The notes under the pieces: model-generated
Seen by the model: only the letters and a program-made list of their open reading frames with translations
Told to the model about the DNA's origin: nothing
Database searches by the model: none
Shown here: piece by piece, positions 3,386 through 63,637 of the stretch
Layout: every line of letters begins with the position of its first letter
How positions within the stretch are numbered: the first letter of the stretch is position 1
Translations under genes and position numbers: made by a program
Assembly: GCA_964556325.1 (NCBI GenBank)
Contig: CAZKVS010000001.1
Span: 67,133 to 131,132 of the forward strand
Reading direction: 5' to 3'
DNA from: an uncultured Candidatus Saccharibacteria bacterium
GTDB lineage: Bacteria; Patescibacteriota; Doudnabacteria; UBA920
Length of the DNA stretch: 64,000 nucleotides

Positions 3386-4402
3386 ATGGCAAAGTGGTTG
3401 CAAAACAAGATTGGGATAGACTTAGGCACAGCCAATACATTGGTGTTTTTGCCTCAGAAGGGAATTGTAATAAATGAACCCACGGTAGTGGCTATTACAT
3501 TGGATGACAATCGGGTTTTGGCGGTTGGCCAGGAGGCAAAAGATATGCTCGGTCGGACGCCAGAAACAATCGTAGCCCGCCGTCCTATGCGAGATGGGGT
3601 TATAGCAGATTACCGCGTAACCGAGGCTATGCTGCGGTATTTCATCAATAAGGCGCTCACAGGCTTTCGGCTCATGCGGCCTGAAGTAATGATTAGTGTG
3701 CCTGGCGGTGTTACTTCGACTGAACGAAGGGCTGTGCTTGACGCTGCTCGTGCTGCTGGTGCTCGGCAGGCTTTTGTAATTAAAGAGACGGTGGCGGCGG
3801 CTATTGGGGCAGGTATACCTATTGGCAGCGCTGCAGGGAACTTGGTTATAGATATTGGCGGCGGCACAACCGATGTAGCAGTGCTTTCTCTGGGAGGTAT
3901 TGTAACTTCTACTTCAGTGCGAGTTGCAGGAAACCGTTTAGATCAAAGCATTGTAGATTATGTTCGGAAAAAGCATGGTTTAACCATCGGAGATAGAACC
4001 GCAGAAGAGATTAAAATTAACATAGGTAGCGCACTCCGCCTTCCAGAAGAAGAAGTTATGGAAGTAAAGGGTCGCGATGTTATTTTGGGCTTACCTCGGA
4101 GTATTACTGTTTCCACCAACGAGGTTGTAGAGGCCATTCAGGAAGACTTAATTGAAATGGTTCGGGCTATCAAGACCGTCTTACAAGAAACGCCACCTGA
4201 GCTTATAAGCGATATTATAGATAAAGGCATGGTTATGACCGGGGGTACTGCCTTACTCAGGAATTTAGACCGGTATATTACTCAGGCTATTAGTGTGCCG
4301 TGTTTTGTGGCGGAAGACGCGCTTTTGTGTGTAGCGAAAGGCACGGGCGTGGCTTTGGATAACTTGGACAGCTATAAGCGCAGTATATTGAGTATAAAAT
4401 AA
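3386..4402 (+). CDS. mreB: Rod shape-determining actin homologue MreB
   Basis: KIGIDLGTANTLVF, DIGGGTTDVAV and the C-terminal GTG motif. Start moved to the internal Met (MAKWLQNK) of the 3317 ORF. Confidence 0.9.
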   Translation: MAKWLQNKIGIDLGTANTLVFLPQKGIVINEPTVVAITLDDNRVLAVGQEAKDMLGRTPETIVARRPMRDGVIADYRVTEAMLRYFINKALTGFRLMRPEVMISVPGGVTSTERRAVLDAARAAGARQAFVIKETVAAAIGAGIPIGSAAGNLVIDIGGGTTDVAVLSLGGIVTSTSVRVAGNRLDQSIVDYVRKKHGLTIGDRTAEEIKINIGSALRLPEEEVMEVKGRDVILGLPRSITVSTNEVVEAIQEDLIEMVRAIKTVLQETPPELISDIIDKGMVMTGGTALLRNLDRYITQAISVPCFVAEDALLCVAKGTGVALDNLDSYKRSILSIK

Positions 4403-34200: not shown

Positions 34201-35235
34201 ATGAGCAGATTATTTCAAAAACATGTACAGGTACGGTTGGTTTCCTACTCGCTGTTAGTTGTAGCGGTTATAGTTGGTTTTGTGTTGGCCGGATATTTTT
34301 ACTATAAGAGCGAGCAGGGCGACATTCCTATGTTTACCAGAATCCGCGCGGACCGGCAGGACTTAAAATACACCAACCCACTCATAGCTTCAGATTTAAT
34401 AGATAAAAAACAGCTAACCGAGTATAAACCTTTGGAGAAAAAAGTTGCAGACTACATACATCAAGTTAAAACGTCCGGCACTGCCAAAGATGTAGGCGTG
34501 TACTATCGGGAGTTTACCAGTGGTGCGTGGACTGGAGTAAACGAAGACGCCTTGTTTGCGCCGGGAAGCTTGCAAAAAGTGCCGCTCATGGTGGCGTACT
34601 ATAAAATTGCAGAAACAGCCCCAGCAATTTTAAACGATAAACTTCCCAACACCATGCAGGGCGATGCAAATACAGCCCAAGCAGTTAAGCCTGCCAAAAC
34701 CATAGAGTACGGCCAGGAAGCCTCGGTATTGGATTTGCTCAAGCTCATGATTGGTTATTCCGACAACAACGCAACTAACGTGTTGTTCAATCATTTAGAT
34801 CAAGATTCCCTCAAAGAAGTTTTTTCCGATTTAAATCTCGTCTTCAATGACCCATCAGCACACACCAATTCTATTTCCCCAAAACAGTACAGCTTGTTTT
34901 TCCGGGTACTCTATAATGCCTCGTACTTAAGTTGGGCGTACTCTGAGCAGGCTTTAAGCTTGCTTACTCAAAGCGACTTTAAAGACGGACTAGCCGCGGG
35001 TGTGCCTCAAGGTGTGGAGGTGGCGCACAAGTTTGGCGAGAGCTATAACCAAGCGGAAATAAAAAACGGCATTACCCCTCTTGAGCAGTTTCATGACTGT
35101 GGGGTGGTGTATTACCCTAATCACCCATATATTTTATGCGTCATGACTAGGGGAGAAGGATTACAGCCACTTGCGAAAGTTATCCAAGACATTTCTCGTC
35201 TCGTCTACCAAGACGCCGAAAGCCGGTATCACTAA
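34201..35235 (+). CDS. Class A beta-lactamase-fold serine hydrolase-like protein
   Basis: N-terminal TM, SLQK (SxxK), YSDNNATN (SDN). The KTG box is replaced by HKFG. Confidence 0.5.
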   Translation: MSRLFQKHVQVRLVSYSLLVVAVIVGFVLAGYFYYKSEQGDIPMFTRIRADRQDLKYTNPLIASDLIDKKQLTEYKPLEKKVADYIHQVKTSGTAKDVGVYYREFTSGAWTGVNEDALFAPGSLQKVPLMVAYYKIAETAPAILNDKLPNTMQGDANTAQAVKPAKTIEYGQEASVLDLLKLMIGYSDNNATNVLFNHLDQDSLKEVFSDLNLVFNDPSAHTNSISPKQYSLFFRVLYNASYLSWAYSEQALSLLTQSDFKDGLAAGVPQGVEVAHKFGESYNQAEIKNGITPLEQFHDCGVVYYPNHPYILCVMTRGEGLQPLAKVIQDISRLVYQDAESRYH

Positions 35236-35243
35236 TGCCCCCC

Positions 35244-35277
35244 TGTCATTCCGAGCGAGTCTTCGAGTCGAGGAATC
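35244..35277. repeat. Short copy of the TGTCATTCCG... palindromic element
   Basis: tgtcattccgagcgagtcttcgagtcgaggaatc. Confidence 0.4.
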
Positions 35278-35360
35278 TAAAGGTCAAACTGAAAATCTTG
35301 CTAATTTATGCGTTTATTGTATAATACCTGAGCAATTTAGAAGCCGTATTTATAGTATAT

Positions 35361-35378
35361 TGCCCGGTAGCCAAGTGG
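35361..35378 (+). repeat. Duplicated 5' 18 nt of tRNA-Gln (tgcccggtagccaagtgg)
   Basis: Identical to 35711..35728. Confidence 0.7.
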
Positions 35379-35450
35379 TCCCGATCAATATACGGGATCT
35401 GCGATAAGGCATCCCGATGCCGCATCGGGACATTCGAAGGTTCGAATCCT
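35372..35450. repeat. Structured repeat R, copy 1
   Basis: caagtggtcccgatcaatatacggg...aaggcatcccgatgccgcatcgggacattcgaaggttcgaatcc. Two hairpins and a T-arm-like end. Copies at 35799..35872 and 35944..35981. Confidence 0.55.
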
Positions 35451-35693
35451 ATGTACCATACGTATATTTTGGAGAACCCTGAAGGTCGGTTATATATTGG
35501 TCAAACTGATAATGTTGGGAATAGGCTATTGCGGCATAATTCTAACATGGTAAAATCAACAAAGAATAAGGGGCCTTGGAAGCTAATATATAGTCGCGAG
35601 TTTGTCGCTCGGAGTGAGTCGGTAGCGTTCGAAACTTATTTAAAATCTCTAAAAAGTTCGAAGTACATTAAATCTTATATAGTTGGTTCTTAA
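35451..35693 (+). CDS. GIY-YIG nuclease family protein (UPF0213/YhbQ-like)
   Basis: YILENPEGRLYIGQTDNVGNRLLRHN ... PWKLIYSREF ... E. The start codon directly follows repeat R. Confidence 0.7.
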   Translation: MYHTYILENPEGRLYIGQTDNVGNRLLRHNSNMVKSTKNKGPWKLIYSREFVARSESVAFETYLKSLKSSKYIKSYIVGS

Positions 35694-35710
35694 TTGGCTG
35701 CCCGTCATAG

Positions 35711-35784
35711 TGCCCGGTAGCCAAGTGGTAAGGCAGAGGACTCTGAATCCTCCATCCTAGGTTCGAATCCTAGCCGGGCAGCCA
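35711..35784 (+). tRNA. tRNA-Gln (anticodon CUG), CCA encoded
   Basis: Folded by hand. Acceptor TGCCCGG/CCGGGCA, anticodon stem GAGGA/TCCTC with loop CUCUGAA, T-arm CTAGG-TTCGAAT-CCTAG. The D-arm GCCAAGTGGTAAGGCA is close to E. coli tRNA-Gln. Confidence 0.8.
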
Positions 35785-35798
35785 ATTAAGAATCTAAA

Positions 35799-35872
35799 TC
35801 AAGTGGCCCCGATTAAGATGCGGGGTCCTCGATAAGGCACCCCGATGCTGCATCGGGGCATTCGTAGGTTCG
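35799..35872. repeat. Structured repeat R, copy 2
   Basis: caagtggccccgattaagatgcgggg...aaggcaccccgatgctgcatcggggcattcgtaggttcg. Confidence 0.5.
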
Positions 35873-35943
35873 CCCGTCTCGGCCGAGGAGAGGGCTGCCG
35901 AGCCGAGGTCGGAAATCCTTCCACCCCAGCCAAATAAATATAA

Positions 35944-35981
35944 AAGGCATCCCGACTCCGAATCGGGGCATTCCTAGGTTC
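35944..35981. repeat. Structured repeat R, partial copy 3
   Basis: aaggcatcccgactccgaatcggggcattcctaggttc. Confidence 0.4.
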
Positions 35982-36042
35982 TCCCGACCCCGCTATTATT
36001 TATAATATGACGTCGGGACCCCGACGTTGCGTCGGTGGGAAC

Positions 36043-36059
36043 CCTAGCCGGGCAGCCAA
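36043..36059 (+). repeat. Duplicated 3' 17 nt of tRNA-Gln (cctagccgggcagccaa)
   Basis: Identical to 35769..35785. Confidence 0.65.
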
Positions 36060-36061
36060 CC

Positions 36062-36086
36062 AAAATCGCCGAACAGGCGGTTTTTA
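36062..36086 (+). terminator. Intrinsic terminator (AAAATCGCCGAACAGGCGGTTTTTA), member of a 3-copy motif
   Basis: Stem cgcc/ggcg extended by A/T pairs, then a T-run. Near-identical copies at 37317 and 47845. Confidence 0.6.
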
Positions 36087-36121
36087 TATTATGCCTTTTA
36101 TTGTAGTGCTATCATTAAAGT

Positions 36122-37009
36122 ATGCATATTTTAGTTATTACCGGGGGTTCGTCTTCCGAACGGAAAATTTCTTTGCTTTCGGCAAAGGGGGTTAAGGGCG
36201 CGTTAGTTGCCAACGGGCACGCGGTAACTATGTTTGATTTTAAACGGGGGTATGACCAACTACGGAGTGCGCTTGAGAAGTGTGATATGGTTTTTCCGGT
36301 CATGCACGGCAAAGAAGGGGAGGACGGCACGTTGTATAAGTTTCTCCGCTCTGCTAAAAAGCCGTACGTAGGCTCAGAGCCAAAGGGGGCAAGGGTTGCG
36401 TTTGATAAAATTCTATTTAAAAAGTATTGCGACGCCAAAGGCATTCTTACTGCGCCATGGAAGGTTGTTAAAACCAGAGAAGATATTACTCGGTTTGGGT
36501 TGCCGTGTGTGTTGAAGGCTACCTATGGAGGCTCTTCGCACGAAGTGGCGCTCTTGCACACTGAAAAAGACCTTGCGAGTATTCGCGTTAAAAAAATACT
36601 TGCACTACCGTGCCGCTGGTATGTAGAGAGGCTACTGCAGGGCGTTGAAATTACCGTTGGGGTTCTGAACGGCAAGGCGTTACCGGTAATAGAAATTGTA
36701 CCGCCAAGTGCCGGTTGGTTTGACTATAAAAGTAAGTATTCAGGTGAGTCCCAGGAAATTCCTTTTGCACCGTCGGTAAGTAGTAAAGTTCAAAAACAGG
36801 CGCAAGCTCTCGCACTACGCATACACAAAGACCTTCGCCTAGGTAGTTATTCCCGAACAGACTTTATTGTACAAAATAGTAAGTTGTACATCCTGGAAAC
36901 CAACACCCCCGGCGGTGTCGGGCTTACTTCCGAGAGCCTGCTCCCAAAAGCTGCCAAGGCCATGGGAATGAGCTTTGAAAAACTTATTCAGCAAATGTTA
37001 AAGCAATAA
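36122..37009 (+). CDS. ddl: D-alanine--D-alanine ligase
   Basis: MHILVITGGSSSERKISLLSAKGV N-terminus, ATP-grasp core, C-terminal LYILETNTPGGVG. Confidence 0.85.
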   Translation: MHILVITGGSSSERKISLLSAKGVKGALVANGHAVTMFDFKRGYDQLRSALEKCDMVFPVMHGKEGEDGTLYKFLRSAKKPYVGSEPKGARVAFDKILFKKYCDAKGILTAPWKVVKTREDITRFGLPCVLKATYGGSSHEVALLHTEKDLASIRVKKILALPCRWYVERLLQGVEITVGVLNGKALPVIEIVPPSAGWFDYKSKYSGESQEIPFAPSVSSKVQKQAQALALRIHKDLRLGSYSRTDFIVQNSKLYILETNTPGGVGLTSESLLPKAAKAMGMSFEKLIQQMLKQ

Positions 37010-52592: not shown

Positions 52593-52748
52593 TGTCATTC
52601 CGGAAGCTACCCACCTACGCCAAGGCTTCGGCGGGCAGGCGAGTCAATCTCCAACCAAGCAAGGGCTACTTGTCCGACGTAGCTTTAGCGAAGTTGGGTC
52701 CGGAATCCATCTTAACACCTGGATCCCGGCTCAGAGGCCGGGATGACG
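52593..52748. repeat. MITE-like element with TGTCATTCCGG / CCGGGATGAC terminal inverted repeats (copy A, 156 bp)
   Basis: Starts tgtcattccggaagc and ends ggccgggatgacgg. Internal sub-palindromes tccggaatcc and ggatcccgg. Confidence 0.6.
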
Positions 52749-63577: not shown

Positions 63578-63637
63578 TGTCATTCCGGACGCTACAAGTC
63601 CCGATGCCGCATCGGGATGCGGGCGATCCGGAATCCA
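63578..63637. repeat. MITE-like element, short copy C, containing the TCCCGATGCCGCATCGGGA core
   Basis: tgtcattccggacgctacaagtcccgatgccgcatcgggatgcgggcgatccggaatcc. Confidence 0.55.

Follow-up and report, generated by a model that had tools for sequence, protein, structure and literature searches.

A small GIY-YIG nuclease gene among partial tRNA-Gln copies: a candidate selfish cassette inside a tRNA transcription unit

Why should a tRNA gene lie among partial copies of itself, next to a gene for a nuclease? The question is raised by positions 35361-36086 of a 64,000-nucleotide (nt) stretch of contig CAZKVS010000001.1 (GCA_964556325.1); by "the window" we mean this whole stretch. Here an intact tRNA-Gln(CUG) gene, the sole tRNA of the 64 kb according to ARAGORN and Rfam, shares a putative transcription unit (35298-36084) with a gene for an 80 amino acid (aa) GIY-YIG nuclease. 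A first-pass annotation had concluded that this is not a simple tRNA gene, and we agree: the extra DNA consists of duplicated tRNA parts linked to a small nuclease-coding insert. On balance, we favour the view that the tRNA-Gln unit hosts a selfish cassette, made up of the nuclease gene and a palindrome, that spreads or persists by break-induced recombination on tRNA homology. The features that carry this argument are the following.

35361-35450, plus strand: U1, the 5' piece, with acceptor 5' strand TGCCCGG (35361-35367), a D arm holding a small hairpin insert (35380-35405), the R1 hairpin, variable region CATTC, T-stem 5' strand GAAGG (35436-35440) and T loop
35412-35430, plus strand: R1 hairpin, TCCCGATGCCGCATCGGGA, with flanks that match tRNA-Gln to position ~26 and from position ~44
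35451-35693, plus strand: stand-alone 80 aa GIY-YIG nuclease gene of the Slx1/UPF0213 type (PF01541, E 1.8e-15)
35711-35784, plus strand: intact tRNA-Gln(CUG) with encoded CCA (ARAGORN; Rfam RF00005, 67.4 bits, model positions 1-71)
35800-35932, plus strand: U2, the first 3' piece, with D-loop remnant CAAGTGG, a small hairpin, AAGGCA, the R2 hairpin (35840-35858), T arm, acceptor 3' strand CACCCCA, G and CCA
35873-35912, plus strand: second-type imperfect hairpin of 40 nt, CCCGTCTCGGCC...GGTCGG, in the T loop of U2
35944-36058, plus strand: U3, the second 3' piece, with AAGGCA, the R3 hairpin (35950-35968), T-stem 5' strand, ~60 nt of hairpin inserts in the T loop, T-stem 3' strand CCTAG (36043-36047), acceptor 3' strand CCGGGCA (36048-36054), then G and CCA

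The extra DNA reads as three partial tRNA-Gln copies (tRNA*), U1, U2 and U3. In all three, a palindromic hairpin, (T)CCCGA-loop-TCGGG(A), occupies the position of the anticodon arm. U1 is without the T-stem 3' strand and the acceptor 3' strand, and neither ARAGORN nor Rfam calls a tRNA in any of the three pieces, even at E<=10 (35200-36200). The tRNA-derived copies are ~90-130 nt long and overlap one another by ~45 nt.

Both programs make the same call for the intact tRNA-Gln(CUG) at 35711-35784, where the first-pass annotation had placed it. The annotation had also reported that both ends of this tRNA recur, and had named inexactness of the duplicates as a way in which its interpretation could fail; on re-inspection, both are exact. 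The 5' 18-mer, TGCCCGGTAGCCAAGTGG, stands at 35361-35378 and 35711-35728 (chance 0.04 even with 3 mismatches allowed), and the repeat extends to 23 nt at 96% identity. The 3' 17-mer, CCTAGCCGGGCAGCCAA, stands at 35769-35785 and, 273 bp downstream, at 36043-36059 (chance 0.16), and extends to 26 nt at 88% identity. The two duplicated words read as the acceptor-stem halves of U1 and U3, the outermost copies, and the 17-mer recurrence is part of a longer, arm-replaced tRNA copy, with a 5'-end repeat present as well. A repeat R had been described upstream of the tRNA with 1.5 further copies downstream, and this count stands: the R core occurs at 35406, 35834 and 35944, with 0 expected in shuffles. 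R1 and R2 have a stretch of 73 nt in common at 85% identity, R3 has the 50-nt core in common with them, and the core itself is palindromic (TCCCGATGCCGCATCGGGA). The 80 aa gene assigned to the upstream insert is recovered as the open reading frame (ORF) at 35451-35693. Its ATG had been said to follow directly on a T-arm-like GGTTCGAATCC; the two are indeed adjacent, with one T between them (the motif ends at 35449, the ATG begins at 35451).

A third tRNA-type 3' end, at 35917-35932 in U2, has a different acceptor sequence, CACCCCA. This is the acceptor of another tRNA-Gln allele, as in the related locus L007 (loci of relatives are labelled L001-L094), so that two allele types are combined in the window locus as a mosaic. 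Small hairpin inserts lie in the D loop of U1 and U2 and in the T loop of U2 and U3, and they are gained and lost inside the pieces at both strain and species level. The CCCGTCTCGGCC...GGTCGG hairpin is absent in the strain variant L001 and present in L094 (2756-2795), and relatives of it occur in the D loop of L009 (about 1925-1960) and in L007 (about 3487-3560). The small hairpins seem to land in loops of other stem-loops. A U3-type piece is also found in L002 and L094.

The first-pass annotation had proposed searching for other copies of R. A fourth, exact copy of the R1 19-mer hairpin is present within the window, at 63599-63617 on the plus strand, in an intergenic region away from any tRNA. 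A larger palindrome at 63579-63632, GTCATTCCGGA...TCCGGAATCC, encloses it in its loop, with a DNA fold of -18.5 kcal/mol (z -4.3). A second repeat family, starting with GTCATTCCG(A/G), is present at 35245-35277, 52594-52606 and 63579-63591 (3 in the window vs 0.22 expected). One of its copies is an imperfect palindrome directly upstream of the tRNA-Gln unit promoter, and the family looks like a REP-like intergenic element.

The arrangement is conserved among the closest relatives of the window. A protein database holds 17 proteins related to the window GIY-YIG at E<=1e-3. The contigs of L001-L008 come from an exact-protein lookup of the closest homologues (proteins 64-100% identical, tblastn), and L009 and L010 from a genome scan (59-64% identical); without the window itself, these make up the nine closest loci, which belong to Patescibacteria where named. 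In all nine, which share the layout of the window, a tRNA-Gln (anticodon CUG or UUG) starts 12-19 nt after the gene. In L002 and L006-L010, the 5' tRNA piece directly next to the ATG and the 3' piece that comes after the tRNA both carry the hairpin. The outer pieces of L006 have matching acceptor strands (TGCCCGG/CCGGGCA) and matching T-stem strands (GAAGG/CCTTC) and share a duplicated segment of ~39 nt, and the inner tRNA-Gln has another acceptor. Compared to L002, the window gene shows a nonsynonymous divergence (dN) of 0.061 and a synonymous divergence (dS) of 0.471. The resulting dN/dS of about 0.13 indicates that the GIY-YIG gene is under purifying selection.

The same genomic site also shows turnover. 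Using ddl as the anchor, we compared relatives whose Ddl proteins are 74-90% identical. The full cassette is present at the ddl-linked site in the window, L002 and L007, and three other relatives differ from it as follows.

L094 (Ddl 90%): collinear with the window from the tRNA-Gln T arm to the terminator; where the 5' two-thirds of the tRNA would be there is a hairpin, and both the nuclease gene and an intact tRNA are missing
L092 (Ddl 74%): tRNA-Gln and two 5' pieces, with a hairpin in the D-loop position and an apparent gene remnant of ~10 codons
L090 (Ddl 80%): a scrap and the terminator only

L094 looks like the product of a repeat-mediated loss of the gene together with the tRNA. Between the hairpin-bearing 5' pieces of L092, at 2655-2700, an ORF-like ATGCAGCACTTCTTTCATAACAAAATATAG can be compared with ...RLLRHN..., and it is possibly what heavy deletion has left of the GIY-YIG gene.

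How far does the association with tRNA genes extend? A scan of one genome per species gave 80 loci spanning Patescibacteria, Bacteroidota, Ignavibacteria, Verrucomicrobia, Planctomycetes, Chloroflexi, Nitrospirota and others. In 56 of the 80, a tRNA on the same strand lies within 150 nt of the homologue, against a background of 0.057 tRNA per kb. Outside the window's clade, the gene usually sits just downstream of the tRNA, and its neighbours are tRNAs for Asn, Pro, His, Phe, Met, Ala, Thr, Lys and Val, among others. A 5' piece, the gene and an intact tRNA in the order of the window are likewise found with tRNA-Glu (L075) and tRNA-Met (L036). Proteins that are 62-65% identical adjoin different tRNAs in different phyla. 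Such a pair is the window protein (Gln, Patescibacteria) and that of L011 (Pro, Ignavibacteria), at 62% identity.

The palindrome accompanies the gene across this sample. The search pattern CCCGA-N-TCGGG has 101 copies in the 80 loci vs 2.8 in shuffles, with 93 hairpins no more than 700 nt from the genes and 8 in 159 kb of background; these counts are underestimates, because stem variants such as TCCCGG...CCGGGA (L075) and CCCCGCC...GGCGGGG (L080) exist. The most common hairpin start is 5 nt past the stop codon. The hairpins share a stem, in consensus T-CCCGA-(Y...R)-TCGGG-A, that is preserved by covariation at the next inner pair (T-A 26, C-G 24), and the loops are of 3-4 nt. For hairpins with an intact tRNA nearby, the match of the upstream flank to that tRNA stops at position 26 in 50 of 122. 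In 42 hairpins, the downstream flank agrees with the tRNA at 18 or more of 22 nt (1.3% in a control with random 22-mers), and in 30 of these the flank begins at position 44. Positions 27-43, the anticodon arm, have thus usually been replaced precisely, in copies of tRNA-His, tRNA-Pro and tRNA-Gln, among others. We also considered whether the hairpin loop is a retained anticodon, as L006 (CUG) and L014 (GAA) might suggest, and rejected this, given that most loops measure 3-4 nt beyond the extended stem.

The genes are often arranged in tandem arrays: L023, for example, has four 342-bp units at 99% identity and L068 has six units. Truncated copies occur in several loci, and many loci end at contig breaks. 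Taken together, the turnover, the arrays and the truncated copies are what one expects of a selfish gene passing through invasion, decay and loss, and not of a fixed host function. The Bacteroidota arrays lie downstream of tRNA-His (L023 1582-2907, L068 781-3191, L070 1913-3074), with a GIY-YIG gene and a hairpin-bearing tRNA 3' piece as the unit, in 3-6 units of 342-382 bp that are up to 99-100% identical. In these Bacteroidota (L023, L034, L039, L049, L065, L068, L070, L073, L085), tRNA-His has an acceptor mismatch at 6:67, mostly U-U, and L023 and L034 have two acceptor mismatches each. We rejected the idea that such mismatches prove a chimeric, element-derived 3' half of the L023 tRNA-His, as U6-U67 is common in the Bacteroidota tRNA-His genes of this sample; the mismatch looks like a lineage feature and not like chimerism. 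At L043 (1049-1940), at least 7 tRNA-Pro copies have TCCCGATGGAATCGGGA in the place of the anticodon arm. ARAGORN labels some of them tRNA-Ser(GGA), and copies of this type are a likely source of spurious tRNA annotations.

The protein itself is minimal. The Pfam domain spans residues 1-72 of the 80 aa, leaving a single catalytic domain, and Pfam finds this domain only, with no separate sequence-specific DNA-binding domain. A profile search against solved structures (1zg2, 8.5e-16; 1ywl, 1.2e-12; SLX1 7cq2, 1.6e-7) groups it with two bacterial UPF0213 proteins, BH0048 and EF2693, and with the structure-specific endonuclease SLX1 of eukaryotes. Catalysis in the GIY-YIG superfamily involves a set of core residues, namely the two Tyr of GIY/YIG, an Arg, a His/Tyr and a Glu. 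Y5, Y15, G17, R25, H29 and E61 are invariant among 17 sequences, which have no invariant or near-invariant Asn after E61. The window protein fits the "prokaryotic Slx1-like" branch, described as a minimal single-domain form (PMC1564403). This is a very large family: clustering at 50% identity leaves 24,232 representatives at E<=1e-3 and 4,303 at E<=1e-10. Annotation resources have little to say about it: NCBIfam gives only a sub-threshold match to a group I intron endonuclease and no curated family, PHROGs has no match for the protein, and PADLOC returns weak partial matches only (E 4e-4). In the homologues P0011-P0016 and in loci where the hairpin starts 19-21 nt before the stop codon, the ORF apparently reads through the hairpin; judging from back-translation of the protein tails, the C-terminal VPT.HRD and SPDGHRD would be explained as translations of the palindrome.

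The nuclease gene and the tRNA appear to be expressed together. On balance, we think that a promoter-like site and a terminator-like hairpin bracket the whole region as one transcription unit, and an inverted repeat surrounds the tRNA within it.

35298-35325, plus strand: promoter-like site, TTGCTA-16 nt-TATAAT, with 10/12 matches and surroundings nearly identical in L002 and L007
35687-35704, plus strand: leader arm of a perfect 18-nt inverted repeat, within which lies the GIY-YIG stop codon TAA (35691-35693)
35775-35792, plus strand: trailer arm, the other half of the inverted repeat, overlapping the tRNA 3' end
36062-36084, plus strand: intrinsic terminator-like hairpin with T run, kept upstream of ddl in L094 and L090

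The putative promoter would drive the whole unit, which lies next to beta-lactamase-like genes and ddl. Folded as RNA, 35680-35800 reaches -51.9 kcal/mol (z -6.4). In six lineages (among them L006, L007, L008, L009 and L010), the complementarity of leader and trailer is kept as a helix of 9-18 bp even though the sequences are wholly different. L080 has the helix although its nuclease gene sits on the opposite side of the tRNA. Because the helix is thus independent of the side of the gene, we assign it to the tRNA precursor and not to the cassette, and it probably acts in processing. The 25-nt promoter core, TTATTGTATAATACCTGAGCAATTT, is exact in L089 (485-509, minus strand), an unrelated metagenome contig with a protein-coding gene downstream and no tRNA; this single locus was all that a metagenome scan with the conserved promoter 25-mer returned in the search for empty sites.

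The mechanism that we infer would run as follows. The nuclease would be made by read-through from the tRNA promoter, with the T-stem strand GAAGG of U1, which is purine-rich and lies 10 nt before the ATG, as a possible ribosome-binding site, and the leader/trailer helix, starting at the stop codon, would let the tRNA be processed from the shared transcript. The nuclease, acting as a structure-specific enzyme, would cut DNA either at the palindrome or close to it, or else where the DNA of a tRNA gene is folded. The break would then be repaired by recombination between tRNA copies, with the conserved D-arm and T-arm sequences serving as homology. Such repair could copy the cassette, by homing-like gene conversion or by unequal crossing-over, and would yield overlapping partial tRNA duplicates, tandem arrays and mosaics. 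The cassette could hop between tRNA species and between genomes, and selection would retain one intact tRNA. In the window's clade, the intact tRNA lies inside the hairpin-bearing repeats, so that any simple deletion of the nuclease gene between these repeats takes the tRNA with it.

The junctions 26/27 and 43/44 fall on the cloverleaf's four-way junction. A four-way junction is the kind of structure on which Slx1-type enzymes act, and by analogy with these enzymes the coincidence is suggestive. It is tempting to speculate that the loci belong to a cross-phylum class of minimal selfish elements, of ~0.3-0.4 kb per unit, in which a Slx1-like nuclease targets folded tRNA-gene DNA, swaps positions 27-43 for the palindrome and spreads on D-arm and T-arm homology. 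We offer this wider proposal tentatively and regard it as possible but somewhat improbable. Targeting of folded DNA (the cloverleaf junction or the extruded hairpin), and not of a long sequence, would explain why tRNA genes for at least 11 amino acids, in many phyla, are involved.

Several observations weigh against a selfish cassette. No adjacent tRNA is present at 24 of the 80 loci, many of which are apparently cut by contig ends. A tblastn search of phage and plasmid collections and a scan of IMG/VR found no copy of the cassette, and no close relative that we examined has a clean "empty" tRNA-Gln site. Cleavage, target site and mobility are all steps that we infer. The protein is an 80 aa catalytic domain without a DNA-binding module, unlike characterised homing endonucleases. 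Further, every piece points the same way as the gene and is read together with it, inside the promoter-to-terminator unit of gene and tRNA, so that a role at the RNA level would fit the anatomy equally well. Such a system could use the hairpins and tRNA-like pieces as RNA partners (substrate, decoy, type III antitoxin or autoregulator), or the protein could be a host factor acting on pre-tRNA. The extra hairpins lie specifically in the D and T loops and not in the stems, which could indicate selection on the RNA fold, and the covariation of the leader/trailer helix is an RNA-type signal. At L043 and L029, arrays of hairpin-bearing tRNA-like repeats stand upstream of the gene and are followed by a terminator, as in ToxI-ToxN, and a TrmH fusion of the Slx1-like domain has been taken as a hint of RNA metabolism (PMC1564403). 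Several points nonetheless make us consider an RNA-level system, though a serious alternative, rather unlikely. The truncated pieces, without an acceptor strand and often without a D stem, are unable to fold into mimics of a tRNA, and even close relatives differ widely in how many pieces they have and in what order. The window is without an upstream repeat array, and the same hairpin is found away from the gene, inside another palindrome (63579-63632). The L080 helix, as said, belongs to the tRNA and not to the cassette. To our knowledge, the GIY-YIG enzymes characterised to date are DNases, which also counts against a role on RNA.

The first-pass annotation had instead seen the scar of site-specific integrations into a tRNA gene, or a miniature integrative element that duplicates its tRNA target. 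Direct repeats of the tRNA 5' and 3' ends do bracket inserts, and the 3' part of the L023 tRNA is identical to the repeated units, as after an integration that carried a tRNA 3' segment. Yet no integrase or recombinase lies in or beside the locus, in the window or in the relatives examined: we found no tyrosine or serine recombinase, and the sole ORF with a family match between the repeats is the GIY-YIG gene. The inserts are merely 0.27-0.35 kb, the duplicates overlap by ~45 nt and carry the arm replacement, unlike an att core, and the architecture is conserved over a wide divergence, which is unexpected for independent scars. Integrase-mediated att-type scars are thus very unlikely, and the repeats that suggested them are the ends of long tRNA-derived copies of ~90-130 nt. 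The idea of a miniature element fares better in part: a small nuclease insert does behave in a selfish-like way and preserves a working tRNA, but not by integrase-type integration. It is least credible that the pieces are themselves functional, whether as a multi-tRNA array or as a split, permuted or intron-containing tRNA joined after transcription. An array of diverged tRNAs in relatives had been named as grounds for abandoning the annotation's interpretation, and the extra pieces are indeed tRNA-derived; they are truncated, arm-replaced and uncalled, so they form no functional array. Outer pieces can match in their acceptor and T-stem strands, as in L006, whose hairpin has the form of a normal anticodon arm, its 7-nt loop being AUCUGAU (CUG). 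In the window, however, the stems of the 5' and 3' pieces mismatch, as GAAGG needs CCTTC and the piece that has it carries acceptor CACCCCA. Loops are mostly 3-4 nt beyond an extended stem, Rfam finds no group I intron or extra tRNA at E<=10, ARAGORN finds none, and the pieces come and go among close relatives. A group I intron or known non-coding RNA was also rejected as a candidate, since Rfam returns tRNA only (in the window at the gathering threshold and in 35200-36200 at E<=10).

For the selfish nuclease cassette that we favour, the nearest known counterpart is SegB, a free-standing GIY-YIG homing endonuclease encoded in the tRNA gene cluster of T4 (PMC2330249) that was recently reported to drive segmental amplification of tRNA loci (PMC13096335). 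In both cases, a GIY-YIG gene lies among tRNA genes with no intron or intein. Spread by break-induced conversion of flanking tRNA sequence has been shown for SegB and is what we propose for the cassette, and the amplification of tRNA loci by SegB parallels the tandem arrays. Seg proteins are larger and have separate DNA-binding modules. In contrast, the cassette protein is a bare 80 aa Slx1/UPF0213-type domain with a companion palindrome and arm replacement, and its family sits in the chromosomes of many bacterial phyla, with no copy in the phage collections searched, a further difference from T4-type Seg genes. Like free-standing homing genes, the cassette shows presence/absence polymorphism at the ddl-linked site and degenerate copies. 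With UPF0213/YhbQ proteins and eukaryotic SLX1 (1zg2, 1ywl, 7cq2) it shares the domain family by profile.

Integrative elements likewise reside in a tRNA gene, duplicate part of it to keep the tRNA working and leave a displaced fragment at the far end; the cassette differs in having no integrase, in being ~100 times smaller, and in its 5' and 3' duplications and the palindrome that stands for the anticodon arm. It resembles REP/RAYT, IS200/IS605 and ToxIN systems in combining short conserved palindromes with one small gene and, in some loci, upstream arrays. Unlike REP/RAYT and IS200/IS605, it has no Y1/HUH transposase, and a GIY-YIG hydrolase is incapable of strand transfer alone; unlike ToxIN, its repeats are tRNA-derived. 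Neither PMC1564403 nor the few papers on the family mention tRNA linkage or a companion palindrome for the Slx1-like branch, and a paper on tRNA introns of Patescibacteria does not cover this arrangement (PMC13011429). In our literature search, we found neither tRNA-linked Slx1-like GIY-YIG genes nor the palindrome described, although absence there is no proof. The arrangement beside tRNA genes in many phyla is thus apparently undescribed. The cassette family differs from SegB in branch, protein size, palindrome, arm replacement and host range.

If our reading is correct, it would give a function to the very large and almost unstudied bacterial Slx1/UPF0213-like family (4,303 cluster representatives at E<=1e-10). 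An 80 aa nuclease with a palindrome of 17-19 nt would be among the smallest autonomous selfish cassettes known. Such cassettes would account for tRNA fragments, for tRNA-like pseudo-genes with odd "anticodons" and for assembly breaks beside tRNA genes, and the exact arm replacement would offer a testable handle on how a nuclease recognises folded tRNA-gene DNA. It would also mean that Patescibacteria, whose genomes are very small, can live with a parasite within the transcription unit of an essential tRNA.

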